A stretch of DNA of 64,000 bases from an uncultured bacterium (GTDB taxonomy: Bacteria; Oederibacteriota; JAAXVQ01), in assembly GCA_964593065.1 (NCBI GenBank), contig CAZQGO010000001.1:350082-414081 (forward strand). The letters run 5' to 3'. Position 1 is the first letter of the stretch. The number at the start of each line of letters is the position of its first letter. The translations under genes were made by a program, and so were the position numbers. This document shows positions 35,407-56,813 of the stretch, piece by piece. Under the pieces are notes generated by a model. That model did no database searches and was not told the origin of the DNA. It saw only the letters and a list, made by a program, of their open reading frames with translations.

Positions 35407-35449
35407 TATGCTCCCCCCCGGATAGAATGAACGCTTACTACTGGAAAAC

Positions 35450-35477: not shown

Positions 35478-35907
35478 ACCGAAAAGCTCTTGCGGATAAA
35501 AAATATTTATGGTTCCGTGACAAAAATATCCGCGGCAGGGCGGAACCGCCGGGGCGAGGAACGGACCCGCGGCTTCGTTCCCGAGGCGGCGCGAAGCGGA
35601 TTGCAGGTGGAAGTTTCCCGGTTTCCGGGCTGCGAGGCGGGGCGAATGATGAAAATTCTTGTTTTTTTTCGGTTCGGGCGGAGGTACAATACTGCCACCT
35701 TGTCCCCGTTTCCCGCCGCCGGCCTGAGAAAACATTCGGCCCCCGGCATCGGAACGGAAGCCGCGGAAAATGCGCCGATCGGACGGGAACGTGCGGAGTT
35801 CGAGTCCAGGCAATGTCGCGAAGGGATGCGAAGTGAACTCTTCCCGCGTGGAAAATCCTGCGAGGACCATACCCGGCGGTTCTTGGCGCCAGGGGAGCCA
35901 TCACGGC

Positions 35908-36321
35908 GTGTCACCCTTCGAAACCCTTAAAGTCCAACACGGCGAAATTCTGGAAATGATCTCCGAGGTTTTGGCCCAATTACCGGCGGACCGGCTCCCG
36001 ACCTACATCGCGAACATCCGCAGCAGCCTGGCCATTTTGGCCGGAAAAGTCAGCGTCCACTTGGCCGTGGAAGACAAGGTCCTATACCCGCACCTGCTGC
36101 AGAGCGCCAATCACGAGATCAAAAACCTGGCCCGGTCCTTCGTGGCGGAGATGGGCGGCATCGCCCAGCAGTTTGCCGAGTACCGGCGCAAGTGGGCCGA
36201 CCTGCCCGACATCCACGCCCAAGCCGAGGATTTTATCCAGGAGACCCGGACCCTGATGACCGCCCTGGCCTGGCGCATCGAGCGCGAGGATGAAAGGCTT
36301 TATCCGCTCCTGGAAAAGTAG
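35908..36321 (+). CDS. hemerythrin-like (HHE cation-binding) domain protein
   Basis: His/Glu residues are spaced as in hemerythrin-like domains (HGEILEMI..., H...LYPHL, ERLYPLL). A probable GTG start at 35908 is preceded by GGGGAG. The region upstream to 35770 looks non-coding. Confidence 0.55.
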   Translation: MSPFETLKVQHGEILEMISEVLAQLPADRLPTYIANIRSSLAILAGKVSVHLAVEDKVLYPHLLQSANHEIKNLARSFVAEMGGIAQQFAEYRRKWADLPDIHAQAEDFIQETRTLMTALAWRIEREDERLYPLLEK

Positions 36322-36335
36322 GCAGGCTTGATCTG

Positions 36336-36602
36336 TTAGCGTTCCTGCAGCCATTGCACGACGGCGATTGCGGCCAGCGTGACGATGACCAGCAGGTTGG
36401 CCCCGATGATGATGGCATCCCGCCGGTGGAACCCGTAAGCCGTCCAAAGGGAAGCTCCGAGCACAAAGATGAAGAGCGTGGAAAAGGCCAGCCGTGCTTG
36501 GCCCGGCCTGCGCAGGCGCAGGAGCAGCTGCGGAATGAAAGAGGTGGAGGTCAAGGCCGCGGCTGCGACTCCGACCAGAGTCCAGAGGGTATCGGGAGGC
36601 AT
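36336..36602 (-). CDS. SemiSWEET / PQ-loop family small membrane transporter
   Basis: 88 aa with three TM helices and a PQ motif in TM1 (FIPQLLLRL). Confidence 0.55.
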   Translation of the reverse strand: MPPDTLWTLVGVAAAALTSTSFIPQLLLRLRRPGQARLAFSTLFIFVLGASLWTAYGFHRRDAIIIGANLLVIVTLAAIAVVQWLQER

Positions 36603-36635
36603 GGTTCTTTTTCGCCAGACCCCCTTTTCCCCGGC

Positions 36636-37076
36636 TCAGCTGGGCTGGCGCTCCCACTTGATCCAGGTGATGAGGGTGCCTTGATCGAGGACGGAAACGA
36701 TATGAAATTCGTCGGCCAGTTTTTTACTGCCGCTTAAACCGACGCCCATGCCTTTTTGATACTGGTGCACGGGCCTTTCCTTCATCGCTTCATCGATGTC
36801 CCGGATGCCGGGGCCGTTGTCCTGGAAGACGAGCTTCAGGCCCCTTTTCCCGCTGGGGGAATTCGCGAGGCTGACCTGCAGCTTCCCCGAGCCCGCGTAG
36901 TTATGGATGTTCCGGGCCAGCTCGGAGACCGCGGTCAGCACGTGCATGCGCTCCAGCGGGGAAAAATTCAGATGCTCGGCGATGAAATTCCTGACCTCCC
37001 CGCGGGCGCTGATGACGTGTTCTTCCGTGGAAATGGGGATTTCGATTTCCGTATTTTTATCAGGCATCGCTTTCAA
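36636..37076 (-). CDS. RsbT/RsbW-like anti-sigma regulatory serine kinase (HATPase_c)
   Basis: N box ELARNIHNYA, G1 DNGPGI, G2 GMGVGL. Confidence 0.8.
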   Translation of the reverse strand: MKAMPDKNTEIEIPISTEEHVISARGEVRNFIAEHLNFSPLERMHVLTAVSELARNIHNYAGSGKLQVSLANSPSGKRGLKLVFQDNGPGIRDIDEAMKERPVHQYQKGMGVGLSGSKKLADEFHIVSVLDQGTLITWIKWERQPS

Positions 37077-37416
37077 CCAACGCTATAGCTTCTTCCACGT
37101 TCAAGGCCGTCCTCACCCCGCGCCAGGACAAGCCCATCTGGGTCAGGGTTAAAGCCACTTCCGGGGTGACGCCGACCACGACGGTGTTGCAATTCAAACA
37201 TTTCGCCGCGCGGCCGATGTTGATGAGAATCCTGGCCAGGTAGGAGTCGATGACTTCCACCAGTGAGACGTCGATCACCAGGCCCCGGACCCCCGTTTCC
37301 TCGATCTTTTTCAAGACCTTGATGTGCAGATCTTCGGCCATCTCGTCGGTCAGTTCGATCTCGATGGGCACCAGCAGCACCTGGCCGATTTTCAATAAGG
37401 GTACGGGGATTTTCAT
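37060..37416 (-). CDS. STAS-domain protein (RsbS-like anti-sigma factor antagonist)
   Basis: 118-aa STAS fold with a conserved phosphorylatable region DVSLVEVIDSYLARIL. Confidence 0.8.
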   Translation of the reverse strand: MKIPVPLLKIGQVLLVPIEIELTDEMAEDLHIKVLKKIEETGVRGLVIDVSLVEVIDSYLARILINIGRAAKCLNCNTVVVGVTPEVALTLTQMGLSWRGVRTALNVEEAIALVESDA

Positions 37417-38156
37417 TTATTCCCCTCGATGCTTTTGATCGCATGCTGCAGGCCCTCCCGCAGGGTATTGCGGGTGGTGAACTGTTCGACCTCGATGCCG
37501 ATCTTGACCAGAATCGAGGCCACTTCCGCGGAGATGCCCGTGATGATGGCGTCGCTGCCGAGGATTTTCACGGCCTTGACCGTCTTGATCAGATGCTGCG
37601 CCACCATGGAGTCGATTACGGGGACGCCCGTGATGTCGATGATGGCCACCTTGGCCCGGTACTGGGTGATGCTGTTCAACAGACGCTCCATGGCGTCCTG
37701 CGCCCGGTTGCTGGTCAAGGTGCCGATGAGCGGCATGACGATGACGCCTTCCCAGGTATACAGGACGGGCGTGGAGAGCTCCTTCAATAATTCCTCCAGG
37801 ATCGAACGCTCCGCCACTTTCTCGATGGCGGTGTTGATCCCCTTGCCGAGGGCGGCCAGGGCTTCCTGCTCAAAGTCCATGGGCACGCGCACCTTCAGAT
37901 TGCCCTCGGCCACCTGGTTGAGGACATTCAGGAATTGGGCGATGGCCAGGGACAGTTCCATGGATTGATTGACGGAGTCCTCGTATACCGAGGCGATGTG
38001 GTTGATGTATTCCGACATCTCGTCCACGATGCGAATGCCCGTCGCCTCGCCCCCCAACCTGGCCTTGATGTCCCCTTCGACCAGCTTTTTCAGGACATCA
38101 ATGTGTTGCGCCAGCGCCGAGCCCAAGTCCGGGTTGTTTTGTGGCGGTTTTGACAT
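37413..38156 (-). CDS. RsbR-like stressosome protein (N-terminal sensor domain + C-terminal STAS)
   Basis: The C-terminal STAS domain is VIVMPLIGTLTSNRAQDAMERLLNSI...IIDITGVPVIDS. The N-terminal ~130-aa domain is helical. Start set to the ATG at 38156, which has a strong RBS AAGAGGAGGA. The ORF track start 38222 would overlap the TusA-like gene. Confidence 0.7.
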   Translation of the reverse strand: MSKPPQNNPDLGSALAQHIDVLKKLVEGDIKARLGGEATGIRIVDEMSEYINHIASVYEDSVNQSMELSLAIAQFLNVLNQVAEGNLKVRVPMDFEQEALAALGKGINTAIEKVAERSILEELLKELSTPVLYTWEGVIVMPLIGTLTSNRAQDAMERLLNSITQYRAKVAIIDITGVPVIDSMVAQHLIKTVKAVKILGSDAIITGISAEVASILVKIGIEVEQFTTRNTLREGLQHAIKSIEGNK

Positions 38157-38193
38157 GAAATCCTCCTCTTCGCGGGAAATTCGTGGCGCGGAT

Positions 38194-38418
38194 TTAAAAT
38201 TGAATTTTACAGTGAAACACACCCGCTGCGTCCTTCTGGATCAACAGCAGCGGTTTCCCCACCCGCTCGCACCAGGTTTTGACGTCCTGCTCGAACGTCG
38301 GACAGTTGGCCTCGGCCTCCATGACATCGCCGGGTTTCATGTCCACGGATTTGGCCGTGATTTTCAAGATGGGTTGCGGGCAGCGCAGGCCCTTTAAATC
38401 CAAGGTTACCGTCGCCAT
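38194..38418 (-). CDS. TusA-like sulfurtransferase / two-layer sandwich CPxP protein
   Basis: MATVTLDLKGLRCPQPILK carries the conserved CPxP motif. 74 aa. Confidence 0.75.
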   Translation of the reverse strand: MATVTLDLKGLRCPQPILKITAKSVDMKPGDVMEAEANCPTFEQDVKTWCERVGKPLLLIQKDAAGVFHCKIQF

Positions 38419-38621
38419 GGGTGAAGCCTCCTTAAGAAAGTGATGGTGATCCGCCAATCTGCCGGCGGCCCGGGGGTGAAATTCCAAGCCGCGCCTTGCA
38501 CACGCTCAGATCCGCCCCTCCTTTCCCTCCGCCGGCCCGTCGCCGCGGAGTCCGAAAGTCAATAGAATATGGTAATAATCGCATATCCGGGGCAAAAGGT
38601 ATAACTAAAAAACACGGAAGA

Positions 38622-39620
38622 TCAAATTACCTTGGCCAATAACAACGTCCTGTCGTCGTGGGTCTTGCCGTATTCCTTCATCAAGTCATTGATCAGATGA
38701 ATGGGCCGGTAGACCCGGCGCGACAGGGGGATGGTCAACTTGCTGGAAAGGCCGTCGGAAAACATGGCGATAATGGAGCCCTTGACCAGCGGGAATTCCT
38801 GCACGTCCAGGGTGCGGGAGATGTCGCCGGCGATTCCCTCCTTCGCGAAGGGATACAGCGCCGTCTCTTCGCCCGGAGGAAATATTTTCGTCGTCACGTC
38901 ACCCAGGCCGCAAAACCGGAGCGTATTGGCGGTGTAATCCAGGCGGACCGCGGAAATGGCCACGCCGCGGACTTTCTGGTCCTTGATGAAATCATGGACG
39001 CGGTAAATCAGCGTATCGAGCTCGGTGTGGGGGTTTTGCAGGATGAAATCCCGCACCGCGGTGGCGCTCCGGCAGGCGTCCTCGCCGTGTCCCAGCGCGT
39101 CCATCACGACCAGCAGGTCGTGTTTGTTCTTGTGGATGATATAGCCGTCGCCGTTGCACTTGTCGTGAAACAGCACCGGATAGGAAAGGACCGCGACCTC
39201 GATGCGGTTGGGGAAATCCTCGCAGTACTTGGTCGCGCGAATCCGCAGGATGTGGCCTTCCTGTTCATAGGTGACGATGTCGGAGGTGCGGTTGATGATG
39301 CCCAGGCCGATCCCGAGGCTTTTCCGGGTCGTGATGCCGTCCTGCTCGGCGCCTTCGGGAAGCGCGCCGATGTTTTCGGAGATGATTTCGATGAACGGAT
39401 TGTCCGCGCGGTGGTAGACGATGCGGATTTTGCCCTTGCCGCTGTGGCGGAGAATATTTTCACATAATTCGCCGGCAATGAGGGACATTTCGTGGATCTT
39501 TTTCTGGTAGAGGTTGTATTTCACCTGCAGGTATTTGAAAACGTTGGCGACGGTCAAAAGATCGCCCTGGTTCTGGATTCGGATCACGTTGTTGACGGTT
39601 TCGTGGTTGCTATTTTCCAA
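38622..39620 (-). CDS. fusion protein: N-terminal RsbW-like HATPase kinase domain + C-terminal PP2C (SpoIIE/RsbU-type) phosphatase
   Basis: The N-terminal HATPase domain carries ELCENILRHS...GIGLGII. The C-terminal PP2C region carries DGYIIHKNKHDLLVVMDALGHGEDA...AMFSDGLSS. Confidence 0.75.
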   Translation of the reverse strand: MENSNHETVNNVIRIQNQGDLLTVANVFKYLQVKYNLYQKKIHEMSLIAGELCENILRHSGKGKIRIVYHRADNPFIEIISENIGALPEGAEQDGITTRKSLGIGLGIINRTSDIVTYEQEGHILRIRATKYCEDFPNRIEVAVLSYPVLFHDKCNGDGYIIHKNKHDLLVVMDALGHGEDACRSATAVRDFILQNPHTELDTLIYRVHDFIKDQKVRGVAISAVRLDYTANTLRFCGLGDVTTKIFPPGEETALYPFAKEGIAGDISRTLDVQEFPLVKGSIIAMFSDGLSSKLTIPLSRRVYRPIHLINDLMKEYGKTHDDRTLLLAKVI

Positions 39621-40171
39621 CTGTTCCCATCCTTCTGCAAGGCCCGGGCCGCCCCGGCAGCCGAGTTTCGGATAAACGGGCCGTAAAGGATCAATCCCGC
39701 GGCAAGCGAAAATCCCGGCGGAAAACCGGCATTTTTTCCATCATAGCGAAATGTCACCCGGAGGTAAAGAACATTCTTTTCTCGCCTGCCGCTCCCTTGA
39801 GAGCAAGCATTCATAAATTTGACACCACGCGATGAAAAATTCCGGGCAGAGTCCGGTCAGAGTGTGGAATACCGCTGTCGCGGGTGGAAGCCGTCCAGGC
39901 TGCCGCAGGCGGAGCGCCAAGGGGATCGATTCCTGCAACGGTGATGAAATCCCGGCAGGCTGCCGGATTTTCGGCTGCCTGGGGAGGAAGCGGGAATGGA
40001 AGCCGGCCTGAATTTGTTCTTTTCTTAGAATGACCGTCAGTGAAAACCCTTGCCGGGCAAGCAGATGTTCGCCCCCGCAGTCATCACCGGCGATAAATTC
40101 ATGGCGCCGCGGCCTTGGCATGAAACCTGCTTCATAACAAAGGGGGGAATCGAATACCGGGAGGGAATAAC

Positions 40172-40510
40172 ATGAACAAAGTGATCGCAGTAGTATTTGT
40201 GTTGACGGCGGGTGTCTTGCTCCTCGGCATCCGTCCCCTTCAGGCCGGCACACAAGATCCGGGAGTCAATGTCCGGCAAAAAATGCAGCATGAACGGATC
40301 CGGGAAGGCGCGCAGAGCGGGGAACTGACGGCCGGCGAAGCCGTGCAGCTGAAGGCCCAGCAAGGACGTATCCGCCGCAGCGAGCGCCGCATGAAAGCGG
40401 ACGGGGAATTGACGGCGGAGGAACGCGCACGCCTGCAGCGCAAGCAAAACCGCGCCAACCGCAATATAAACCGCAAGAAGCACAACGACCGCAAACCCGC
40501 GGAGGAATAA
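40172..40510 (+). CDS. small secreted protein with internal duplication of an LTxxE/Q-type repeat (divergent CpxP/Spy-like?)
   Basis: Signal peptide. Two repeats: GELTAGEAVQLKAQQGRIRRSERRMKAD and GELTAEERARLQRKQNRANRNI. Basic C-terminus. A terminator-like hairpin is downstream (40538-40565). Confidence 0.5.
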   Translation: MNKVIAVVFVLTAGVLLLGIRPLQAGTQDPGVNVRQKMQHERIREGAQSGELTAGEAVQLKAQQGRIRRSERRMKADGELTAEERARLQRKQNRANRNINRKKHNDRKPAEE

Positions 40511-40594
40511 ATTCCCTTCGTCCCGGCCGACCGGGCCCGGCAGTGTTGGGCCCGGTTCTTAACATTCCTGCGCCCGGGAATACGGCCGGGGCCC

Positions 40595-43150
40595 TTATTT
40601 TTTTCTCCGCCGGGTTTTGGCCTTCGCGGTGGCCTTGGCTTGGCGGGGATCGTCCGGCCAGGGGTGACGCGGGTAGCGGCCCATGAGTTCCTTTTTCACC
40701 TGTGCATAGGTCCGGTCCCAAAACCCGTCCAAGTCGCGCGTGCGCTGGACCGTGCGTCCGGCCGGGCTCAACAGATCCAGCATGAGCGCCTGGCCGCAGA
40801 GCCTCGGCGTGGTCACGCAGCCGAAAAACTCCTGCAGCCGCGCGGACAGGACCGGCACATCTCCGCTCTCATAATCCAGCCGTTTGCCCGAACCGGAAGG
40901 CAGCCTCAGGCTTTCCGGCGCCAGCTGGTCCAGGAGCAGCCGGCGTTCCCGCCCCAGATGAAACTCCAGGGCGTGCAACAGAGACGTCTCGTCCCAAACA
41001 GCGCCTCCCCGCCAATTTCCGAAGGGAAGCAGCCAGCTGTCGGCCGATGCCACCAGCCTGTCATCGGAAAATTCCGGCCACCCGGCCACGCGTCCCCATT
41101 GTCCCACGAACCGGCAGCGGGCCAGGAAGCGCCTGGCAGCGGGGTTCCAGGGGAGATCCGCCAAGCCCCGGTCTTGAAGCCTGGAAAGCGCCGCGTTCCG
41201 GAATTCGCCGGGCTCCGGAAGCCCGGCTGGTTTTTCCTTCAGAACCATGGCCCCCAGCCTGACTTCCGACCTGCAGCGGGGCTTCCAGCCCTGCCATTCC
41301 AGGACCCGGGTCTCGCGCAGCGGCCCGGCCCGGCCCGATTCGAGGTCGCGCAGGGAAACCGGGGCGGCCAGATAGATCCTCGCATCCTGCTCACCGCCGT
41401 CCAGGTCCGCCACCACCAGAAACTCCTCGCCGGCGAGCTCGCCTTGGATCCAGGCGCCGCGGCCCGATGCCAGGAGATAACGGGAGGTAACGGGATCATC
41501 GGAACGGGTCCTTTTCGCCGCCCGGTCGGGATAGGCCGAAAGCAGCAGCGGCCCGGCGTCCTCCGGCTCACAATTCAATCTCCCGGCCGTGCCTGCGCCG
41601 AATTTCCGCCTTTCCGGCTGCGCCGGAAGTTTTGCCAGCAGGCGGCGGGCGTCCTCCCGGACCCGCCGGGCGGCGTCCGCGTCGCCTGCGTGAGTTTGGC
41701 CGGCGGCCCAGGCGCCGAACGTCGCCAGGCGTTCGCGGAAATCCGCATCCCGTCCCGGGATCAGGTCGTCGTTTTCCAGAAACGCGGCGATCACGGCCGC
41801 GGTTTCGGTCCGGGCCCGGGAACCGGCGTCCAGCACCATTTTCCCCAGGCGCGGATGGACCGAGAGTCCGGCCGCCTCTTTCCCGGACGGAGTGATCCGG
41901 CCTTCCGGGCCCAGCAATCCCAATCCGGCCAGCAGTTCCAGCGCCTGCCGGCCCGCTGCTTGCGGCGGCGGGGTCAGCCACGTCAAATCCCAGGGGGAGG
42001 CCGCGCCCCACAAGGAGGTTTCCAGAACCAGGGACGCCAGGTCGGTTTGCAGGATTTCCGGCCTGGAAAAAGCCTCGCGGAATTCATCCTCGCGCCACCA
42101 CCGGTAGCAAATCCCGGGGCCGTTCCTGCCGGCGCGGCCCTTGCGCTGCTCGGCGGAGGCCTGGCTGATCTTTCCGGTCTCCCGGTGATCCAGTCCCGTG
42201 CGGGGCGAGAAGCGCACGCTCCGTTCGAGGCCGGTGTCGACCACGGCCGTCACCCCGGGAACCGTGAGGCTGGTCTCGGCCACGTTGGTCGCGAGTATGA
42301 CGCGCGAACCGGACGCCGCAGCCGGATCCAGGATCCGGCGCTGCTGCTCGGGCGGCATGCGCCCGTGCAGCAGCAGCACCTCGGTCCCGGCTTCCGGCAG
42401 GCGCCGGCGCAGGATTTCCCGGGCGCGATGCATTTCCCGGTAGCCGGGTAAAAAGCACAAAATGGTTCCGCCGTGCCCGGGCCGCGGCGGGCGCAGCGCC
42501 TCCAGGCACAGGCGCGCCGCGCCGTCCCAGGGCGTTTCCCGGCCGGAGGCCGGCGGGCGATACTTTACTTCCACGGGATGCGCGCGGCCGGGCACCTCCC
42601 GCACGGGCCAGGGGCCGAACGCGAGCGCAATCTCCTCTTTCGGGAGCGTGGCCGACAGGAGAGCCAGCTTGAGGTCCGGGCGGAAAATCCGGCGCGCGTC
42701 CCAGGCCAGGGCCAGACCCAGATCGCCTTGGAGGCTGCGGGTATGGAATTCGTCGCAAAGGATGGCGCCGTATCCCGACAGGGACGGGTCCGCCTGCAGG
42801 AGGCGCGTGAGCACGCCTTCGGTCACCACTTCCAGCCGGGTGTGGCCGCTGACGAGGGTTTCCAGCCGGGTGCGCAGGCCGACGGTGCGGCCTGGTTTTT
42901 CCCCCAGGAGTGACGAGATGCGGTCCGCGGCCGCGCGGGCCGCCAGGCGGCGGGGTTCGAGGAGCAGGATTTTATTCCGGGCGAACGCGGGCAGGGACAG
43001 GAGTTTCCAGGGGAAGAGCGTGGTCTTGCCGGCCCCGGTCTCGGCCGAGAGCAGGAGCAGGCCCTCGCGCGCCAGGGTGCCGGAGATCTCGTCCAGGAAA
43101 GGGAAAATGGGGAGGTGCCGGATATTCTCGGACGGGCCGGAGCCGTTCAT
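40595..43150 (-). CDS. hrpB: ATP-dependent RNA helicase HrpB (DEAH-box)
   Basis: Walker A GAGKTT, a DEFH box (CDEFHTR), helicase C domain, HA2 and a C-terminal HrpB-specific domain. 851 aa. Confidence 0.9.
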   Translation of the reverse strand: MNGSGPSENIRHLPIFPFLDEISGTLAREGLLLLSAETGAGKTTLFPWKLLSLPAFARNKILLLEPRRLAARAAADRISSLLGEKPGRTVGLRTRLETLVSGHTRLEVVTEGVLTRLLQADPSLSGYGAILCDEFHTRSLQGDLGLALAWDARRIFRPDLKLALLSATLPKEEIALAFGPWPVREVPGRAHPVEVKYRPPASGRETPWDGAARLCLEALRPPRPGHGGTILCFLPGYREMHRAREILRRRLPEAGTEVLLLHGRMPPEQQRRILDPAAASGSRVILATNVAETSLTVPGVTAVVDTGLERSVRFSPRTGLDHRETGKISQASAEQRKGRAGRNGPGICYRWWREDEFREAFSRPEILQTDLASLVLETSLWGAASPWDLTWLTPPPQAAGRQALELLAGLGLLGPEGRITPSGKEAAGLSVHPRLGKMVLDAGSRARTETAAVIAAFLENDDLIPGRDADFRERLATFGAWAAGQTHAGDADAARRVREDARRLLAKLPAQPERRKFGAGTAGRLNCEPEDAGPLLLSAYPDRAAKRTRSDDPVTSRYLLASGRGAWIQGELAGEEFLVVADLDGGEQDARIYLAAPVSLRDLESGRAGPLRETRVLEWQGWKPRCRSEVRLGAMVLKEKPAGLPEPGEFRNAALSRLQDRGLADLPWNPAARRFLARCRFVGQWGRVAGWPEFSDDRLVASADSWLLPFGNWRGGAVWDETSLLHALEFHLGRERRLLLDQLAPESLRLPSGSGKRLDYESGDVPVLSARLQEFFGCVTTPRLCGQALMLDLLSPAGRTVQRTRDLDGFWDRTYAQVKKELMGRYPRHPWPDDPRQAKATAKAKTRRRKK

Positions 43151-43193: not shown

Positions 43194-44093
43194 TCAATTC
43201 CACGGGCCGGAGGGGGTGAAAAAGTATTCCGCGGTGAAACGCGGGTCAAGGTCATGATAATAGTCCAGCCAGAGTTCGAACTTGGCCTTCAGCTTGGGAT
43301 ACTGTTCCAGAAGGTAATGATACCGTCCGGGGTCAAGGAAGAAGAAGGCAGAGAAATAGCAAAAATCCTCAGAAAATGAGGATCTGCAGAAATCGCTGAG
43401 AAAACCCTGTGCAAGCATTTCGGGTTGCGTCATGCCTCTTTTGATCCCGGCGGCCTGGATGGCGTTGTTGGGATAGACGAATCCACCGGGATTGAGGGCC
43501 TCCCAGCGCTTAAGGTTTTGGAAGGGCTTCTGGTGCAAGAGCAGATGAGCCAGTTCATGGTGGAACGCCAGGAATAAGTAATCTTCATCCATCTCCGGCC
43601 GGACAGCCATGAAAATGACGCCGGGTCCGCAGGTCGCACCGTAATCCACCCCATAGAAACTCATGCGCTTGGCCAAGGCGATCGTCTTGAGATGTTGTGC
43701 GACAAAACCCTTGGGATAGCGCGCCAGGGCCTGATTGAGAATGGCCGGCATGCGCCGGAGCTGGTCGGGCTCGATCTCCTCGCACTCTGCTCGGTATTCC
43801 GGAGAAGTGCGCCAATCAGGAAAAAAAGCAGCGCTATCCGACCGCAGCTTGAGATGGTATTTGCTCTCAATGGGCAGGAAAAGAAGCTTGGTTTTCGCCA
43901 AGAGGACGAAATCGTGCGGGCTCAGGCAGCCGGTCAGCCCGAGGCAGAACCCCGCAGAGATCCCGAGCAGGATGAATCGGGCCTGCCACGGGTGGCCTCG
44001 GTTTTCTCCGGAATTCCACAGACCCCGCGGGTCCGTTCGCACGTTTCGTATCCCGAATTTTCCGCGGGGAGAAAACGCTCTCGCCGGGTTCAT
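43194..44093 (-). CDS. putative lipoprotein with HExxH zinc-metallopeptidase-like motif
   Basis: The lipobox is LGLTGC. AFHHELAHLLLH contains HExxH. Its ATG overlaps the stop of the upstream TIGR03545-like gene (ATGA). The 790-aa ORF in the track is over-extended in a different frame from the overlapping upstream gene. Signal peptide length is uncertain. Confidence 0.55.
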   Translation of the reverse strand: MNPARAFSPRGKFGIRNVRTDPRGLWNSGENRGHPWQARFILLGISAGFCLGLTGCLSPHDFVLLAKTKLLFLPIESKYHLKLRSDSAAFFPDWRTSPEYRAECEEIEPDQLRRMPAILNQALARYPKGFVAQHLKTIALAKRMSFYGVDYGATCGPGVIFMAVRPEMDEDYLFLAFHHELAHLLLHQKPFQNLKRWEALNPGGFVYPNNAIQAAGIKRGMTQPEMLAQGFLSDFCRSSFSEDFCYFSAFFFLDPGRYHYLLEQYPKLKAKFELWLDYYHDLDPRFTAEYFFTPSGPWN

Positions 44094-46051
44094 TTGAAAA
44101 GCTTTTTCAGCTGGTCCTGCGCGCCTTTCTTCAATTGTTCCTCGGCCTTTTTCTTCTCCGCCTCCACGGCCTGCTGGGCCGCGGCCTGTTTTTCCTTGAT
44201 CAGGTTCTGCACGGCCGCGATTTGATCCTGCACCGACTTCTGCTGGTCCAGGATCGGGCCGAGCGCCGTGTTCTTGGAGAGCCCGTATTGCTCCAGAAGC
44301 TTCTGCTGCGAGTCCGCCGTATAGCGGTTGATTTCCGCCATGAGCTTGGACCGCAGTTCGGCCAGTTTTTCGCCGGCCATGGCCTTGAGCCGGTCGCCCA
44401 GAAGTTTGTCCAGGTTCGAGGAGAGGTTGAAGCGCAGGTCGCCGGCCTTGCCCGCAACCTGGGCGTCGACATGGACGCTGTCGATTCCGCGCCACAGCTC
44501 GGCCACCAGCTTCCGGACGTCGTCGCCGGCGCCCGCCTGCGCGGGCGAGGGGGCTCCCAGCCCGGTGAACCGGGCGGTCAGCGCGCAATCCAGCCGGTCG
44601 CCTTCCAGGGTCAGGAGGCTGTTCACGGCCAGCCGGCCCTCCCGGAAACGGGGCAGGTAATCCGATGCGGGCAGGTCCAGGGCCGCGGCGGAGAGCCCCC
44701 GGGCCGCGAGGGTGACCGTGTCCTTCGGCACGTCTCCGGTGTGGTCGAGCACCGCGCTCAAGGCGTACTCCCGGCCGCCCTGGGTGCCCTTGACCTCGGC
44801 CCTGGTCGGCGTCCCGAGCAAGCGGGGATCGGAGGTGACGTCGGTCACCCGGCCGGAGAAATCCACGGACTCGCCGGTCTTGCCGGCTCCGCCCGTGGAT
44901 CCGGACAGGGAAATTTTTTGAATCCAGAAGGCCGGCGGAACGTTGCGCCGCGGAAAGAACACGTCCATCCCTTTCAGGCGGGGCTGCGTGATTTTTTTCT
45001 GTTTCGCTTTGCGCGCCGGCATGTATTTCCGGGCCAGGTTGGCCAGGTCCACGAAACGCTGCACGCGGTTCAGCCACAGGGAGCCCACCAGGGACCGGGC
45101 CAGGTTGCCGAAGGAAAGGGAAGGCAGGTTGAGCTTGGAGGAGAGGGTCTGCAGGTCCTTTTCCTTCCATTCGTTCAGGCGCTGGGTCAGGCCCGCGGCC
45201 TGCCCGAAGTCGGTCTCGGCCCGCGACTTGAGGTCCTGCAGCTGTCCGCCCAGGGCCTGCAGCTCCTGGACCTTGCGCTGGGCGTTTTCGATCTTTTCCT
45301 TCGCGGCGGCCGCGTCCTGCGGGCTTTGCACCTGCAGGCCCTTGAGCTCCTCCAGGGCCGGTTGCACCGCCTGCAGCTTGGCCTGCACGTCGAGGGATTT
45401 GACCTGCCGCTCGTAATCCCCGGCCTTGTCCTGGTACGACTGCCGCAGAGCCTGGGCCTGCCGGATGGTTTCCAGTTCCTCGGGGCGAACCACGCCCTGC
45501 AGGGAAAGGCTCGAAACCTGGTCCTTGGCTTTTTGGATGTTTTCCCAGGCCGGCAGGGCCTGCCATTCCGACTTGGCCCGCGTTTCCAGGGTGGTCAGGA
45601 GTTTGCCGGTGGGGCTGTCCGCGGGCGCCAAACGCGCCGCGTAGCTCTTCTGTTGGGACGGGGGCAGGGCGCCTGAAGTCTTGCGGGCCGTGCCCCAGCG
45701 CACGCCCTCCAGGCTCAGTTCCGGGATATTGATCTTCTTGGAGAGCAGGGGCAGGAATTTCAGCCCGGCACGCGCGGAGGATAATTCGAAGAGGTTTTTC
45801 ATGGGCGCCTGCTTGTCGGCCACGGCCACGTCCCGGACGGTCAGGGTCAGTCCCGAGAAACGGAAGTGCACGGAAGCGATCTCCACCTTGGCGCCGAACA
45901 TCAGCTCGCCCAGGCGGATGAACCCGGCTTTCAGCAGGCCGTCGAGGAACAGGATATTGAAGGCCGTCACCAGCACGATGAGGATCAGGGCCGGGACGGC
46001 GTATTTCCAGCGGAAGAGAGCCGTACGCTTGGGTTTTTTCTCCTCAGCCAT
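44090..46051 (-). CDS. TIGR03545-like protein (N-terminal TM anchor, long coiled-coil-rich periplasmic/extracytoplasmic region)
   Basis: N-terminal TM (YAVPALILIVLVTAFNILF). Extended Q/K/E/A-rich helical segments. Paired with the TIGR03546-like small membrane protein downstream of the AT-rich island. Start at the ATG 46051, with a GAGGGT RBS. Confidence 0.55.
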   Translation of the reverse strand: MAEEKKPKRTALFRWKYAVPALILIVLVTAFNILFLDGLLKAGFIRLGELMFGAKVEIASVHFRFSGLTLTVRDVAVADKQAPMKNLFELSSARAGLKFLPLLSKKINIPELSLEGVRWGTARKTSGALPPSQQKSYAARLAPADSPTGKLLTTLETRAKSEWQALPAWENIQKAKDQVSSLSLQGVVRPEELETIRQAQALRQSYQDKAGDYERQVKSLDVQAKLQAVQPALEELKGLQVQSPQDAAAAKEKIENAQRKVQELQALGGQLQDLKSRAETDFGQAAGLTQRLNEWKEKDLQTLSSKLNLPSLSFGNLARSLVGSLWLNRVQRFVDLANLARKYMPARKAKQKKITQPRLKGMDVFFPRRNVPPAFWIQKISLSGSTGGAGKTGESVDFSGRVTDVTSDPRLLGTPTRAEVKGTQGGREYALSAVLDHTGDVPKDTVTLAARGLSAAALDLPASDYLPRFREGRLAVNSLLTLEGDRLDCALTARFTGLGAPSPAQAGAGDDVRKLVAELWRGIDSVHVDAQVAGKAGDLRFNLSSNLDKLLGDRLKAMAGEKLAELRSKLMAEINRYTADSQQKLLEQYGLSKNTALGPILDQQKSVQDQIAAVQNLIKEKQAAAQQAVEAEKKKAEEQLKKGAQDQLKKLFK

Positions 46052-46209
46052 GGCGATACCCTCGGAAAGTAGAATGACGGCGCCGGAACGCCTGACCCGC
46101 TGCGCGCGGACACTGCCCCCGGTCAAGGGGCAGGGAGATCACAAGCTTATCTCCGGGGAAAAACGGACACGCGCACTCCGCTATGCTCCCGCGCTGATTC
46201 CAGGCGAGG

Positions 46210-46728: not shown

Positions 46729-47099
46729 GGTCCGCCTCCTGGAAACCCTCGTCTCCTCCTGAAACGGCTAATTTTACTGCACCCCCTTTCCCATGGCAAT
46801 CAGGAAAACTGTCGAATGAAATATAGTTGGCCGGGATTCGACCGACCTGCCCGGGGATTTTATTCATGGCGTTCTTCATCTTCCGAATGCATACCTTGGC
46901 CCGTGTTTCCGACGGATCTGTTCGTGAAGGCAAACTCCGAAATCTTGCCTGGCAGCAAAAAAACGATGGGACGCAGCCAGGTATTAGTTATTAACCATTG
47001 TAATTAAATAAGTTATTTAAAATACGGTAATCCGATCCGGATAATGTTAATATTTTATGAATATTTAATTAATAATATTAATATAAATGAAATTAAATA

Positions 47100-47127
47100 T
47101 TGACAAAATTAATATTGATAATATAAT
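47100..47127 (+). promoter_or_regulatory. perfect sigma70 consensus promoter TTGACA-N16-TATAAT inside a 170-bp AT-rich island
   Basis: TTGACA at 47100-47105, a 16-nt spacer, TATAAT at 47122-47127. The RBS GGGAGG is at 47146-47151 and the ATG at 47157. The surrounding 46985-47150 is about 10-15% GC in a ~67% GC background. Confidence 0.5.
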
Positions 47128-47156
47128 ATTATTGAAATAATCAATGGGAGGACCAC

Positions 47157-47522
47157 ATGGCAAAAGAATGGATGGAATTGGCAAAGTTTGTCCAGGGTGA
47201 GCAGATGGTCGTTCAAAAGGTCATGCTTCCCGGCCGGGGCCTTTCCATTGAAGGAGAGTTTGAACTTCCCCCCGTGGCGCGGCTTTCCTTCGAGGACCAG
47301 GTTTTCGTGGCCACTTTTATCAGGACCCACGGCAACATCAGGCACATGGAGCAGATCTACGGAGTGAGCTACCCGACCATCAAAGCCCGCTTGAACCGCC
47401 TGTCGGAGGCCTTTGACTTCGTGCAGGTGGAAAAAATACCGGACGCCATGGACGTGCTCAACCGCCTGGATGGCGGCGAAATCGACGTGGCGGAAGCCCT
47501 GCGCAGGCTGGAGGAGAGATGA
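47157..47522 (+). CDS. DUF2089-family small HTH protein
   Basis: The conserved DUF2089 core is FVATFIRTHGNIRHMEQIYGVSYPTIKARLNRL. Confidence 0.7.
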   Translation: MAKEWMELAKFVQGEQMVVQKVMLPGRGLSIEGEFELPPVARLSFEDQVFVATFIRTHGNIRHMEQIYGVSYPTIKARLNRLSEAFDFVQVEKIPDAMDVLNRLDGGEIDVAEALRRLEER

Positions 47523-47797
47523 TCCCGCCGTATTGGCTGTGGGTGAGAATTGCGCCGGCGGCCCGGTCGGGTTTCCGCCTGTGGTTTCCCCTGTTTCTGC
47601 TGTGGCCCATCTGGCTGCTGCTGGGGCTGCTGTATTTCGCGGTTCTCATTCTCCTGGTCTGGCTGTGGCCCGTAAGCCGTCGCGCGCGGGCCTGGTTGCT
47701 CATGCCCCCGCGCGCCTACGCCGTGCTGTGCGCCCTGCGCGGCTTGTCCGTGGATGTGTCCTCACCGAAAGACGCCGTGCGCGTTTTCATTCTATGA
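47519..47797 (+). CDS. small membrane protein (2 TM)
   Basis: WFPLFLLWPIWLLLGLLYFAVLILLVWLW. The ATG overlaps the DUF2089 stop (ATGA). Confidence 0.5.
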   Translation: MIPPYWLWVRIAPAARSGFRLWFPLFLLWPIWLLLGLLYFAVLILLVWLWPVSRRARAWLLMPPRAYAVLCALRGLSVDVSSPKDAVRVFIL

Positions 47798-47818
47798 ATC
47801 CCAAGGAGGGAAAGACCA

Positions 47819-48243
47819 TGTCCGAGGAGCGCTTGAAAATTCTGGAACTGCTGTCGAAGGGAAAAATCAGCGTGGAGGAGGCGGAGAAGCTGCTCGCCGC
47901 CCTGGGCGAACAAGCCGGGGAAGCCGGGCCGCGCCCGGCCACGGGCGGCGCCAAGCCGCGCTATCTGGTGGTCAACGTGTATTCGGAGAAGGGCGGGCCG
48001 GACCAGCCGGAAAAAGTCAATGTGCGCGTGCCCCTGCAGGTCATCCGCGCCGGCGTGAAGCTGGCGTCCCTGATGCCGGCCGTGGCCAAAGACAAGGTCA
48101 ACGAGGCTTTAAGCGAGAAGGGCATCCAGCTCGACCTGGATAAAATCCGGCCCGAGGACATCGAGGAGCTGGTTTCCGCCCTGGGCGACATGACCGTGGA
48201 TATCAACGACGGCAGGGAGAAGGTCCGCGTGTACTGCGAGTAG
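47819..48243 (+). CDS. SHOCT-like / LiaG(YvlB)-N-terminal-like domain protein
   Basis: The N-terminal LKILELLSKGKISVEEAEKLLAAL resembles the SHOCT-like helix pair found on LiaG/YvlB-type proteins. RBS GGAGGGAAAG. Confidence 0.5.
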
Positions 48244-48253: not shown

Positions 48254-48672
48254 CTACAGCTCGCCCGCCACTTCGCGGTTCAGCCTGCGGAAAAACTCCT
48301 CCATGAAGGCCTGCCGCTCCGCGGCCAGGCGCCTGCCTTCCGGGGTCAGCATCCGGTCCCGGATCCGGCACAACTTGACCCGGTACTCGCGGTAGGCCGT
48401 GTCCTCTTCGGTGTAGGGCCGGGTCCGTTCCGGGTCCGCCTCCGGGTTGTGCAATTTGGCTCCCACTTCGCCGGCGAACAGATAGGCCCGGCCGATGCCG
48501 ATGGCTCCGATGGAGTCGAGCTTGTCCGCGTCGAACAGCACCCGGGCTTCAAGGGTCTTCGGTTCGTGGCGGCCGCGGAAGCGATGCGCGCGGATGCAAT
48601 GGGCGACGGCTTCGGTTTTTCCGGCGGGGAATTGATGCCGGGTTAGAATCTGCCGCGCCGGCTCCACTCCCC
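48254..48672 (-). pseudogene. truncated 3' fragment (C-terminal ~140 codons) of an HD-domain phosphohydrolase gene; duplicate of 54900..55320
   Basis: 390 bp (48254-48643) are identical to 54900-55289, which is a +6646 offset. A few mismatches follow up to about 48678. The fragment encodes ...ARQILTRHQFPAGKTEAVAHCIRAHRF...NREVAGEL. No N-terminal HD motif or start codon is present. Confidence 0.7.
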
Positions 48673-48854
48673 GTTCGTTTAAACTGCGAGATGATACTCC
48701 GGAAACGCCTGTGCCCAAATTGAAAAAGGCCGTCCCTGGGCGGGGAATAATACTGGGCAGCCAGTGCCGCGGTCTGTATACTGGTGCGGGTTGCCAGGAA
48801 CCGGAACGAAGGAGGACTGGCAGTACCCCGAGCAAATCCTGAAGGAGGGAAATT

Positions 48855-49078: not shown

Positions 49079-52000
49079 ATGAACACGACCCCAACACCTC
49101 GTCGACCGCGCCGGGGGAAACATTCTGCTTCCGGAGCCGGACGGGGGCGTCCGGGGCCCCAAAGGGCCGCCATGCACGACCGGCCGAAGCCCGGCCTGCG
49201 GTCAGGGACGAGCGGCTGGTTGCTGCTGGCCGTGCTGCTGATATTTGCCGGGTGGGGACAGGACAGACTCTTTCACATGGGGCTGCGAAAGGCTTTGGCG
49301 TTGGGCGGTCAAGCGCTCGGCGGACGGCTCCAAGCTGAGCAGGTGAGCGGCAACCTGCTCGGGCAAGTCCGACTGCAAGGTCTTCGGCTGGAAGATTTGG
49401 ACCTGGACGGTCTGCGGGCCAACGGTCGGATCGCGCATCTGAAGCTTGACTTTCATCCCCTGCGCCTGTTGGGTGGGCGGCGGGCGTTCCTGGGCTCCAG
49501 CCGGATCTTTGTCGATAGGCCGGATCTTCAATTCCGAACGGTTCCAGGAACCGGACCCGCTCCCTCGCCCGCCCCCCCGCCTTCGTTTATCTTGGACATA
49601 CTCGCGCTGCAACTGGGAATACGGGATGCCAAAGTCCTTTGGCATCCCGCAGCGGGGGAGCTCATGATCCGCTTCCAGGCCCAAAGTGACGGCCGGCGCC
49701 TACGCGTGACCGACCTGAAGGCGCTCGCCTTTCAGGGAAGGGTCCGGGTCGCCCAGGCCGAACTGCCCGTGCGTGCCTGGTTTACGCCGGGAGAGGACCC
49801 CTGGCAGCAGGTTTCCGTGCGCGGCGATCTGGCTCTCCCGGATGCGGTCTCCTGGCTTGTCCTCGTGGGACTATTGCCGGCAACGGACAGACTGCCGCTT
49901 CAGGCGCCCATGTCCCTGTCCGCGCAGTGGCGCCTGGAAAGACTGGCGTTATGGGTGGACCGACTCGTCCTGGAGGCCGCAGGCGGGACCGTGACCGCTT
50001 CCGGATTGATCTGGCCGCACGTTGATCTTTCTCGTCTCACCCAGTGGCGGCCCGCGCAGGGCCATCTGCAGGCCGATATTCGGGATCTTTCTTCCATGGG
50101 AGCGGCGGTCGGCAACACGGACTGGCAGGGGCGGGTGAGTCTGCAAGCGGACTTTGCGTCCGGGTCCACAGAGCAGGAAGGAGCGGTCACCTTGACGGCG
50201 CGCGACCTGGTCTGGAAGCGAAAGTCCATAGGGGACCTGCTTCTGAGCGGCCGCGTCGGTGCACACGGCGTTATTCTGGAACGCCTGGACCTCAGACACC
50301 CCAAGCACACGGTCCAAGGGCAAGGCGGCTTTGATTGGGCGGCCGGCACCTTGCAGGACGTCCGGCTCACGGGCGAGCTGCGGGCCGGAAGCCCCCTGCT
50401 GGACGTGCTGCTGCCAGGCGCGGATCTACAAGGCCGGGCCGTATTAAATATGGAGGCCCGGGGTCCCTGGCGCCTGCCGGAGGGCCGCTTACACCTCGAG
50501 GTGCCGCACCTGACCTATGGTGCTTTCGGTCCGGGAGATCTTATGTTGCAGGCTGAAGGCTTGCCCGGTCGCGTACGGCTGGAGAACCTCTCGTTCACGG
50601 GTCCCGGACCCGAATTGCGTCTCTCCGGGGTTCTCAGCCATGATGACGGAGACGGCGCCTATCGAATGGACATCAAGACCGCGGCCTGGTCCCACGCTGG
50701 AGGGAACCTGTCCCTGATAAGCCCGGCCCGTGCCACCTGGCAGCCGTCTGGAAAGTGGTCATTGACCCCGCTGGAACTTGCCGGCACGGGAGGCCGTATC
50801 GCGCTCACGGCCCGGGCCGAGGCTCCGGGACAAGGCTCGTTCGACCTGGAGGCCAGGGACCTGTCCAGCGGTTCGTGGTTTGCGTCCTTGACCGGGAAGA
50901 GGCTGCACTTTTCGGGCTTGAACGTCAGGGCCGCCGCGGCCTATTCGCCCGGCGTCACGACCGGCACCCTGCAGGGAAAGATCGCCGAACTTTCCGGGCC
51001 GGCCGCGCCTTTTGCGGGTAGCCTGGTGTTCGATATCTCCCAGGAACCGAACCGCCTGAGTTTGAGGTCGCTGACCTTCACGGCCAAAAACGCCCAACCC
51101 AGCTTGGTCCTTTCGGGATTTGTCTCTGCGAACCTGTTCTCCGCCTCATTTCCGACGGACGCGGACTGGGACCTGCAAGGCCATGTGAATTTGCCGGACC
51201 TGCATTTCCTGTCCGCCTGGATGGAACCGGGTTGGACCCTGACTGGAACCGCTCGAGCTGATTTTCACCTGACAGGTACGCCGGGCGTGCCCAAAGGCCG
51301 CGTGACGGTGGCCGCTTTTAATCTCGAGCTCCCGTCCCAGTTCCCCCTGCATCTTCCCGGACCGATCACGATCACCGCTCAAGCGCGGGCCGAGGGTGCG
51401 CGCCTAACCCTGGAAAGCTTTTCCCTGACATCGCCGGCCTTGCAGGCCGATGCCCAGGGCTTTTGGCATCAGCCCGCCTGGTGGCATCGCTGGCTGGCTC
51501 TGCGGGGCAGAGCGGCCGATGCCGTGGACGTAACACTGGCTTTTGCCTCATCGGACATCGGCTGGGTCGGCCGTAGCGTGGCCCGCCGGATGCACATTGG
51601 GGGACGTCTGGAGGGGAAACTTCGGGTCCGGGGTCCCATGAGGAATCCAGTCGTCCAAGGCGAAGCCCGCCTGGAGGATGGGCGCCTGCGCTGGGAGAAC
51701 CCGGCTGCGCCTGCCCTCGAAGATCTGAAGCTGAAGGTGATCGCCGATCAGCACAAGCTGACGCTGGCCGAACTGACCGCGACCCTGGGCGGCGCCCGCC
51801 TGACCGGCAGCGGTCAGGCGGACTTAAGCGGAGAATCGCCTTACCTGCGGGTGAAATTGGGTGGCGACAACCTCCTGTTGTGGCGAAGCGAGTATCTGCG
51901 CGTGCGTGCCGAGGTCCTCCTGCAGCTGGCCGGGGTGTGGGACCGGCTGGCTCTGACCGGGAAGGTCAGGATCACGGAGGGCAGATACACGCAACCAATC

Positions 52001-54821: not shown

Positions 54822-54899
54822 CCCGGGGGAAAACGATCCGTAAAAGTAGTGGCCGTCCTGTCCTTGCCGGGACGGGTCCGCATCGGAACCTCGGGCTGG

Positions 54900-55538
54900 C
54901 TAGAGCTCGCCCGCCACTTCGCGGTTCAGCCTGCGGAAAAACTCCTCCATGAAGGCCTGCCGCTCCGCGGCCAGGCGCCTGCCTTCCGGGGTCAGCATCC
55001 GGTCCCGGATCCGGCACAACTTGACCCGGTACTCGCGGTAGGCCGTGTCCTCTTCGGTGTAGGGCCGGGTCCGTTCCGGGTCCGCCTCCGGGTTGTGCAA
55101 TTTGGCTCCCACTTCGCCGGCGAACAGATAGGCCCGGCCGATGCCGATGGCTCCGATGGAGTCGAGCTTGTCCGCGTCGAACAGCACCCGGGCTTCAAGG
55201 GTCTTCGGTTCGTGGCGGCCGCGGAAGCGATGCGCGCGGATGCAATGGGCGACGGCTTCGGTTTTTCCGGCGGGGAATTGATGCCGGGCTAGAATCTGCC
55301 GCGCCAGCTCCGCGCCCCGTTCGGCGTGGTCGACGCCGCCCCCGGCGAGGTCCTCCTCGCCCCGCGCGATGTCGTGCAGCACCGCGGCATAGCGGACGAT
55401 TTCCAAGTCCGCGCCCTCGCGGGCCGCGAGGCGCGCGGCCAGGATCAGCACGCGCCGGGTATGCTCCCAGTCATGGGACCGGCGCGAGGCGGAAAATGCA
55501 TTCCGCGCTTCCTCTTGAACCGCTGCAAAAGTCTCCAT
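54900..55538 (-). CDS. HD-domain phosphohydrolase
   Basis: The HD motif is ...HTRRVLILAARLA...LHDIAR.... The C-terminal 140 aa is identical to the fragment at 48254..48672. Start chosen is the ATG at 55538, with a GGAGGAAGG RBS. Confidence 0.8.
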   Translation of the reverse strand: METFAAVQEEARNAFSASRRSHDWEHTRRVLILAARLAAREGADLEIVRYAAVLHDIARGEEDLAGGGVDHAERGAELARQILARHQFPAGKTEAVAHCIRAHRFRGRHEPKTLEARVLFDADKLDSIGAIGIGRAYLFAGEVGAKLHNPEADPERTRPYTEEDTAYREYRVKLCRIRDRMLTPEGRRLAAERQAFMEEFFRRLNREVAGEL

Positions 55539-55808: not shown

Positions 55809-56813
55809 ATGAAAATCGTGATGTTCGAAATGGATCCCTGGGAAGAGTCCGCCTGGGACGCGCTGCGCCGGGAACATGAAACGGTGCAGGAACGAAAAAC
55901 TCTCTCGGCCGAAACGGCCGCCCAGTACCAGGACGCGGAGGCCGTGTCCGTTTTCCTCTATTCTCGCGTCACGGCCGAGGTGCTCGCGCTGCTGCCGCGC
56001 CTGCGCCTGATCGCTTCCCGCTCCATCACCACCGACCACATTGATCTGCCGGCCTGCCGCCAGCGGGGGATCACGGTCTGCCACGTTCCCGCCTACGGGG
56101 AGAACGCCGTGGCCGAGCATGTGTTCGCCCTCCTGCTGGGCATCAGCCACCGGCTGGTGGAGGCCGCGGACCGGACGCGCCGCGGCGATTTCAGCCTGCG
56201 CGGCCTGCAGGGCTTCGATCTGGCCGGCAAAACCCTCGGGGTGGTGGGCACCGGCGCCATCGGCGCGCGCGTGGCGCGCATCGGCCGCGGCTTCGGCATG
56301 GAGCTGCTGGCCCACGATCCCGAACCCGACGCCCAGCTGCAAAAAGAACTGGGACTGAAGTACGTGCCGTTTACCGAGCTGCTCGAACAGGCCGACGTCG
56401 TCAGCCTGCACGTGCCGGCACGCCGCAACACCGAGCATCTGCTGTCCAAGTCCGAGTTCAAGCGCCTGAAAACCGGCGCCGTGGTCATCAATACTTCGCG
56501 CGGCAAGGTGGTGGACAACCAGGCCCTGCTCCGGGCGCTCTCGGAGGGACAGGTGGCGGCCGCGGGCTTGGACGTGCTTCCGGAAGAACCCCTCCTCCAC
56601 GAGGAGGCGGAACTGCTGCATTCCTCTTTCCCGCCCCAGTACGACCTGGAAATCCTCCTCGTGGATCACGTGCTGCTGCGACTGCGCAACGTCATCATCA
56701 CGCCGCACAGCGCCTTTTACACCCGCGAGACCGTCCGGAAGATCTCGGAGGACACGGTGGAGGTCCTGCGGGCTTTCGCCCGGGGGAAACCCCTGCACGA
56801 AGTCACGGGGTGA
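55809..56813 (+). CDS. D-isomer-specific 2-hydroxyacid dehydrogenase (D-lactate/phosphoglycerate dehydrogenase family)
   Basis: NAD-binding GVVGTGAIGARVARI. Catalytic R/E/H spacing (TSRG...E...HSAF). Confidence 0.85.
   Translation: MKIVMFEMDPWEESAWDALRREHETVQERKTLSAETAAQYQDAEAVSVFLYSRVTAEVLALLPRLRLIASRSITTDHIDLPACRQRGITVCHVPAYGENAVAEHVFALLLGISHRLVEAADRTRRGDFSLRGLQGFDLAGKTLGVVGTGAIGARVARIGRGFGMELLAHDPEPDAQLQKELGLKYVPFTELLEQADVVSLHVPARRNTEHLLSKSEFKRLKTGAVVINTSRGKVVDNQALLRALSEGQVAAAGLDVLPEEPLLHEEAELLHSSFPPQYDLEILLVDHVLLRLRNVIITPHSAFYTRETVRKISEDTVEVLRAFARGKPLHEVTG

Follow-up and report, generated by a model that had tools for sequence, protein, structure and literature searches.

The 64-kb window analysed here, i.e. 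the whole stretch of 64,000 nucleotides from the genome of an uncultured bacterium, carries the 3' end of a gene for an HD-domain phosphohydrolase twice, on either side of an operon for outer-membrane biogenesis. Such a locus raises the question whether a gene tail found on both sides of a block is the scar of a mobile element, the remnant of an ordinary duplication or a fault of assembly. An earlier note on the same DNA had proposed either an integration into the 3' end of a gene with regeneration of this target or a segmental duplication followed by deletion, with misassembly as an alternative. Our analysis favours, with a probability of about two thirds (0.68), a real duplication remnant whose pseudogene tail would have been homogenised by gene conversion, without participation of a mobile element.

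Extent and boundaries of the repeat

Pairwise alignment and base-by-base comparison defined a direct repeat of 424 nt, with both copies in the same orientation, at positions 48254-48677 and 54900-55323 (offset 6646). No other long repeat was found in the window. The copies differ at five positions (left/right): 48257 (C/G), 48643 (T/C), 48660 (G/A), 48666 (A/G) and 48668 (T/G). The first of these differences is synonymous and falls in the last Leu codon of the HD reading frame, and the 385 nt from 48258 to 48642 are perfectly identical. Identity had previously been given as 100% between 48254-48643 and 54900-55289, with a few mismatches out to about 48678 and 55324; the offset of +6646 and the outlying mismatches were found again, whereas the identity of this portion is 388/390 and homology ends at 48677 and 55323. 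Position 48678 already lacks similarity to its right-copy counterpart.

At the outer end, the boundary is the stop codon of the HD gene (CTA on the + strand) in both copies, at 48254-48256 and 54900-54902, and the left copy does start exactly there, as had been described. Over the 50 to 100 nt past either boundary, similarity was not above that of shuffled and random-window controls (p about 0.3-0.99), so that neither a microhomology nor a longer decayed duplicate is claimed. A likeness of the type 'CGGGC..GG' / 'GGTCCGC' to the left of the stop codon was dropped, being likewise not above these controls.

The two copies, the bracketed operon and its flanks

The features of the locus are listed in Table 1.

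Table 1. Coordinates of the repeat copies, the genes between them and the adjoining regions
Feature	Position	Strand	Remarks
Left flank 'A', DUF2089-orf92-SHOCT-like operon	47157..48243	+	last stop 10 nt from the left copy
Left repeat copy, truncated 3' fragment of the HD gene	48254..48677	-	last 141 codons + stop
lapA leader	48678..48854	+	unrelated to the HD gene; runs from the left copy (inner end) to lapA
lapA-like gene, small membrane protein, 66 aa	48855..49055	+	LapA_dom PF06305, 2.6e-09
TamB-like gene, 1228 aa	49079..52765	+	PF04357, 6.5e-25
Omp85 gene with POTRA repeats, 700 aa	52719..54821	+	Omp85, 2.5e-41; POTRA x3
Spacer of the convergent gene pair Omp85/HD, 78 nt	54822..54899	.	GC hairpin
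Right repeat copy	54900..55323	-	last 141 codons + stop of the intact HD gene
Intact gene of the HD-domain phosphohydrolase	54900..55538	-	212 aa from ATG; PF01966, 1.3e-19
Right flank 'B', D-2-hydroxyacid dehydrogenase gene	55809..56813	+	divergent from the HD gene

As stated in the earlier note, the right copy forms the 3' end of an intact HD gene; the product of this gene has a full PF01966 domain. The reading frame stays open up to a GTG at 55571, and a promoter-like site was found at 55602-55574. The protein covers profile positions 2-114 of PF01966 with the signature WEH...LHD...DADKLD, and the H...HD...D metal-binding motif is present over a domain of about 115 residues. With 114 bits on the PRK10119 model, below the equivalog cut-off of 286, it is classed as a YedJ/PRK10119-like family member and not as an equivalog. 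Protein P0123 is identical to this 212-aa product. In an alignment with 14 homologues (58-70% identity), the inner-edge positions of the right copy agree with the family consensus. The one polymorphism private to it, at 48413, is synonymous, and the other, at 48643, leads to a residue that is also seen in homologues.

In the left copy, gene callers predict a 137-aa ORF, the GTG start of which (48665-48667) depends entirely on the left-specific substitution at 48666. Its translation matches profile positions 60-114 of PF01966 only, without the H...HD half, and the likeness to HD proteins ends exactly where the homology ends. With reference to the same 14 homologues, two private substitutions were observed, both at near-invariant positions: Ala is replaced by Val (A76V) and Leu by Pro. 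Furthermore, the SHOCT-linked copy has lost its stop in five contigs from other samples (TAG to CAG, window position 48256), and in contig L087 the reading frame is also closed prematurely at 48301, by which the invariant residues FF..R...E..G of the C-terminus are lost. Because the H...HD half is missing, near-invariant residues are changed and the stop is lost or premature in other strains, the left copy is to be regarded, on these sequence grounds, as a non-functional truncated pseudogene. Its previous description as a promoterless C-terminal fragment holds; the C-terminal half of the HD domain is all that was found there.

The 6.2 kb between the copies contain three genes, all on the + strand, for a LapA-like, a TamB-like and a BamA-like Omp85 protein. 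The lapA leader has a weak promoter-like site (48754-48782) and a GGAGG ribosome-binding site, and the lapA-like protein is of identical sequence in five independent contigs. For tamB, gene callers in other assemblies choose a start at 49172 within the ORF that opens at 49079. On the NCBIfam models, the Omp85 protein scores 292.6 bits for BamA (TIGR03303, cut-off 297) and 130 bits for TamA (cut-off 625), and by these scores it looks like BamA rather than TamA. The domains that the earlier note had assigned to the three products were recovered, with the exception of its 'tamA' label, to be replaced by a BamA-scoring Omp85. Judged from its predicted products, the operon of this deeply branching lineage appears to be of the type lapA-tamB-bamA. 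Operons of tamB and bamA occur in lineages without a dedicated TamA, and, as in these, the TamB gene stands here directly before a BamA-scoring Omp85 gene with POTRA repeats. The same pair is present in a relative with a 41%-identical Omp85, in the order glyS-tamB-Omp85; unlike in that relative, which has neither an HD gene nor a lapA-like gene nearby, both adjoin the pair here.

Several other features were observed on the left side of the locus. The SHOCT-like protein (141 aa) is encoded with an internal 47-nt repeat (47863-47909 and 48142-48188, + strand, 72% identity); both repeats encode 'KI..E..E.L..ALGD', near the N- and C-termini, and Pfam recognises the N-terminal one only. Just upstream of the DUF2089-orf92-SHOCT operon lies a perfect sigma-70 consensus (TTGACA-16-TATAAT, 47100-47127), and positions 47042-47130 form an AT-rich stretch (44% GC, as compared with 65% for the genome) with the short tandem repeats AATATTTAATG and AAATTAATATTGACA. 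About 3 kb upstream of tamB, a gene at 44090-46126 (- strand) encodes a 678-aa TIGR03545/DUF748 protein, which we take to belong to the AsmA/TamB-like group of envelope proteins; it adjoins genes for a DUF2062 protein and an HrpB helicase. On the right flank, response regulators and a PFOR come after the 2-hydroxyacid dehydrogenase.

Recurrence of the arrangement in independent assemblies

Exact-protein look-ups gave access to 16 independent contigs (99.2-100% identity) from 10 datasets, namely seven metagenomes of JGI and the Logan assemblies (k=31) of three SRA runs. Look-ups with the fragment P0011, the 212-aa HD protein, the 700-aa Omp85 ORF and a spurious 160-aa ORF had no exact match, possibly as a consequence of start-codon choice. 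Throughout these 16 contigs and 10 datasets, sequences coming from SHOCT or from Omp85 always enter the repeat at its outer end and those coming from lapA or from the 5' half of the HD gene always at its inner end. Logan contigs terminate exactly 30 nt inside the shared run (L086 and L092 after marker 48272, L091 after 48257, L002 and L004 before 48643), a pattern characteristic of a repeat that truly has two contexts in the reads. Contig L094 (SRR8557364) passes the inner boundary without a branch.

Two distinct copies coexist within single samples. In sample 3300031354, position 48413 is G in the SHOCT-linked copy (L088) and A in the copy linked to Omp85 and the HD 5' half (L090). Likewise, position 48542 in sample 3300031552 is T in the lapA-linked copy (L005) and C in the copy linked to the HD 5' half (L095). 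On an NCBI contig of 416,687 bp, presumably the source of the window, the 137-aa fragment is present together with the 212-aa HD gene.

The full traverse from SHOCT through the repeat to lapA was found in the source contig of the window only. Six of the seven independent SHOCT-side contigs end inside the repeat and one continues to the HD 5' half, i.e. 0/7 reach lapA. Apart from the source, three contigs cross the repeat: L090 shows the parental passage from Omp85 to the HD 5' half, and L087 and L001 show recombinant ones. Breaks were also observed inside tamB, where L001 and L004, from independent assemblies, both end at 49551, L001 restarting at 49691; the adjoining positions 49552-49581 (+ strand) are a C-rich low-complexity tract, CCCGCCCCCCCG x2.2. 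A gap in sequencing coverage is probably responsible, possibly a strain-variable segment.

An assembly artefact would imply that the source contig mis-threads a collapsed repeat and that the genome has a single HD tail at this place. The shared run is indeed longer than short reads, the assemblies behind L087 and L001 resolved the repeat differently, and the SHOCT to lapA traverse is confirmed by no independent contig. However, all four joins between flanks and repeat recur in the 10 datasets, the ends of the block lead into the repeat and nowhere else, copy-specific SNPs coexist in single samples and L090 independently shows the passage from Omp85 to the HD 5' half with a private SNP. Moreover, the order of the window alone makes use of the four observed joins and needs no non-replicating circle. 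Given the alternative joins of L087 and L001, the linear order rests in part on the reasoning that a 6.6-kb circle would not be maintained if it lacks replication functions. Since the four-way branching at the repeat recurs in 10 datasets, a one-off misassembly, the alternative named earlier, is largely excluded. An artefact of this kind is considered very improbable, and the gene order of the window is accepted as real with high confidence.

Edge-clustered divergence and probable gene conversion

The mismatches between the copies are far from evenly spread, a pattern whose bearing on gene conversion the earlier note had overlooked. All differences (five in the window, seven to eight in other strains) fall within the outer 19 nt and the inner 35 nt of the 424 nt. 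Four belong to the inner edge and up to three to the outer one, and the interior 370-385 nt show none or one. Under uniform divergence, such clustering would be expected with a probability of about (54/425)^7, roughly 5e-7. The edges have diverged by 11-16%, as compared with 0.1-0.5% between strains, which suggests that the duplicate is old and that its interior was overwritten recently. The '100%' identity of the interior is to be read as an upper bound, given that bubble-popping or re-use of graph nodes can hide isolated interior SNPs; neither process could mask several per cent of divergence.

Markers at the edges also vary among strains. At the outer edge, the left copy of the window reads A,C,T and that of five other contigs G,C,C, and the right copy of L090 has T, the left-type base, at 48643. 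Such variation between strains is what independent conversion tracts would bring about, and we infer from this pattern that the homogenising process is gene conversion.

The tufA and tufB genes of Salmonella and E. coli, as well as rrn operons, are duplicated genes kept identical by gene conversion. The present copies are similar to these in lying several kb apart in the same orientation, with a near-perfect interior and diverged edges, in having marker boundaries that vary between strains and in that recombination between copies can delete or duplicate the intervening segment. Unlike in these cases, one partner is a dead fragment of 424 bp and not a functional paralogue, and conversion would here be effectively one-way repair of a pseudogene, without obvious selective value. 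On a more general level, edge-clustered mismatches together with strain markers can tell a duplicate maintained by conversion from an artefact or from the scar of a mobile element.

A search for consensus terminators found none from the SHOCT gene to lapA and none in the Omp85-HD spacer. Hairpin energies in both places did not differ from those of shuffled sequences, the GC hairpin CCGUCCUG...CGGGACGG of the spacer included. As there is no terminator-like site from SHOCT to lapA, one may speculate that read-through from SHOCT over the left copy would give an RNA antisense to the HD mRNA, perfectly complementary over 385 nt. It is still more speculative that selection for this antisense pairing, beside gene conversion, might keep the interior identical.

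Origin of the duplicated gene tail

Pfam annotation of every neighbour between 33 and 64 kb gave no integrase, recombinase, excisionase or transposase, either inside the block or up to about 15 kb away. Searches for tRNAs and Rfam RNAs over about 15 kb were negative as well, which bears out the earlier remark that integrase, transposase and tRNA are missing. A foreign origin of the block was rejected because its composition is not an outlier (tetranucleotide distance 0.163 versus a window mean of 0.133 with an SD of 0.023, i.e. within 1.3 SD; GC 65%).

Comparison with other genomes was limited by the isolation of this lineage. A scan of genome_contigs with the HD protein gave 80 loci of at most 63% identity, none of them syntenic on either side: tamB, Omp85, SHOCT, DUF2089 and 2-hydroxyacid dehydrogenase were sought as neighbours and found at 0 of the 80. 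The closest HD homologues, which include MAGs labelled candidate division FCPU426, are 63-70% identical; in protein searches, the range from 70% to 99% identity was empty for HD homologues, and an Omp85 of more than 41% was not found. A scan of metagenome_contigs with an exact 30-mer of the repeat gave 0 matches, this collection not holding the samples concerned. With HD proteins at 70% or less and Omp85 at 41% or less, the lineage is too isolated for the ancestral gene order to be recovered.

Among known integrative elements, e14 and phage 21 insert into icd of E. coli and carry a substitute 3' end of their target. Site-specific integration at the 3' end of the HD gene in this manner, with a replacement tail, would agree with the duplicated tail that brackets the 6.2-kb block, the gene being regenerated at one end and a promoterless 3' fragment displaced at the other as in icd; this topology is that of a 3'-end integrative element. 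However, in contrast to e14 and phage 21, neither an integrase nor phage genes accompany the block, or any recombinase, excisionase, transposase or tRNA within the 15 kb mentioned above, and the cargo consists of lapA, tamB and Omp85 alone, native core genes of native composition. The identity pattern is also inverted: a short identical att core is expected within diverged, element-borne tails, whereas here the interior is identical and the edges have diverged. Finally, 0/80 HD loci in other genomes have anything comparable adjoining the gene. An integration footprint, as suggested by the earlier note, is for these reasons hardly credible, although the repeat, the fragment and the lack of recombinases that the note had described were all found again.

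A Campbell-type insertion by homologous recombination is the chief alternative to a local origin. DNA carrying lapA-tamB-Omp85 and a 424-bp HD tail, circular or linear and possibly from a related strain, could have recombined into an HD gene next to SHOCT, by insertion-duplication or by homology-facilitated illegitimate recombination. With a truncated copy at one end of the block and the intact gene at the opposite end, the locus has the single-crossover topology of a circle that carries a 3' fragment; the left copy is only 10 nt from the SHOCT stop, as expected of an original convergent pair, and the diverged edges could be leftover allelic differences. Such an insertion is nevertheless judged quite unlikely. 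The block is native in composition and encodes core functions that the recipient already needed, a former tamB-Omp85 locus would be required elsewhere and this second context is seen in no contig, gene conversion is still needed for the perfect interior and the 80 HD loci examined bring no comparative support.

A local history is favoured because each of its steps is a common bacterial event and no second locus is needed. The chromosomal order would be real, from the SHOCT operon through the HD 3' fragment and lapA-tamB-Omp85 (BamA-like) to the intact HD gene, and the left copy would be the dead remnant of a local segmental duplication. It may have arisen by tandem duplication of the segment from lapA to the HD 3' end, followed by loss of the redundant first copy of the operon, or by a template switch during replication, through which the HD tail was copied. 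The edges of this old duplicate would then have diverged, and its interior would have been overwritten repeatedly from the intact gene by a RecA-type gene conversion that keeps 370-385 nt identical, a mobile element playing no part. The duplication-plus-deletion history, one of the two readings of the earlier note, is thereby retained as the best guess and not as proof, no close relative existing; until one shows the pre-duplication state, it is a conjecture. The exact position of the outer boundary at the stop codon is predicted by neither the insertion nor the duplication model and may mark the extent of edge erosion.

Possible recombination between the copies

Direct repeats make an intervening operon deletable or amplifiable by RecA-dependent unequal exchange. 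The suggestion that homologous recombination could excise the tamAB block is therefore sound as far as the substrate is concerned, and the repeats would passively turn the 6.2-kb operon into such a unit. Two contigs have the corresponding joins. L087 (sample 3300031277, 1.3 kb) leads from SHOCT through the repeat to the HD 5' half; an empty target site would read in this way, but the contig has a pseudogene-type tail and may be an assembler path. L001 (sample 3300031699, 6507 bp) leads from tamB and Omp85 through the repeat to lapA and tamB, which corresponds to the 6646-bp unit minus 139 nt.

These joins are either path choices of the assembler or products of real unequal crossing-over, and we infer that they are mostly the former. 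Ongoing RecA-mediated crossing-over in the population would yield deletion alleles (SHOCT-repeat-HD) as well as amplifications or circles (Omp85-repeat-lapA), and the operon copy number would vary between cells; this would add to the duplication remnant preferred above and not replace it. L087 and L001 are exactly the two reciprocal products of an unequal exchange, and the branchless crossing of the inner boundary by L094 points in the same direction. On the other hand, the shared run of 270-385 nt exceeds a typical short read, so that an assembler is unable to phase it and may take either exit, and the parental join is present in a third sample (L090). The HD gene of L087 has the pseudogene-type tail of a chimeric path or of a defective recombinant, and L001 ends at the C-rich tract of tamB where another assembly breaks, as in a walk around a graph loop. 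BamA is essential, and a deletion should be lethal if this Omp85 is the BamA of the cell. The alternative graph, a SHOCT-repeat-HD chromosome with a free 6.6-kb circle, would demand a circle without replication function and a chromosome without a BamA-like gene. Ongoing exchange on this scale is thus a minority possibility, and there is a similarly modest chance that some of the recombinant molecules are real.

The locus may also be compared with tandem units bounded by direct repeats, known from gene duplication-amplification in enterobacteria and from the amplifiable units of Streptomyces. A 6.2-kb segment between direct repeats of about 0.4 kb is of this type, and L001 contains the diagnostic end-to-start junction (Omp85-repeat-lapA). 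The differences are that the repeats are here a gene tail and not IS or rrn copies, that the cargo is an outer-membrane biogenesis operon and not a resistance or catabolic gene, and that amplification of the present unit is hypothetical. It is rather doubtful that the repeat copies are a natural copy-number switch for the tamB-bamA operon, with L001 and L087 as real crossover products, frequent enough in sediment populations to be assembled; if they were, cells would differ in the dosage of an essential operon for outer-membrane biogenesis, and real recombinant junctions would provide a natural example of tamB-bamA operon dosage variation. As things stand, the locus is an ordinary duplication remnant that leaves knowledge of any system unchanged. 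It is also a cautionary case: an uncultivated and deeply branching bacterium carries a repeated gene fragment of 0.4 kb, which gives rise to contradictory contigs across metagenome assemblies.

Other observations in the window

The region 33000-41000 has a lower GC content (0.59 versus 0.64) and the most atypical tetranucleotide usage of the window (0.20 versus a mean of 0.13). Encoded there are an ECF sigma/anti-sigma pair, a hemerythrin and proteins of partner switching (STAS, SpoIIE-type phosphatase and HATPase kinases).

An 88-nt element occurs twice on the + strand (13837-13924 and 25000-25087, 85% identity) and matches no Rfam family, the best match, with E=0.53, being noise. The two copies sit in 5' leaders, one of an MBOAT acyltransferase gene (14129-15556) and the other of a CBS-pair gene divergent from ftsH. 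Two hairpins are conserved between them, the loop of the first being different and the stems being kept with one compensatory pair, which makes the element a candidate cis-regulatory leader RNA.
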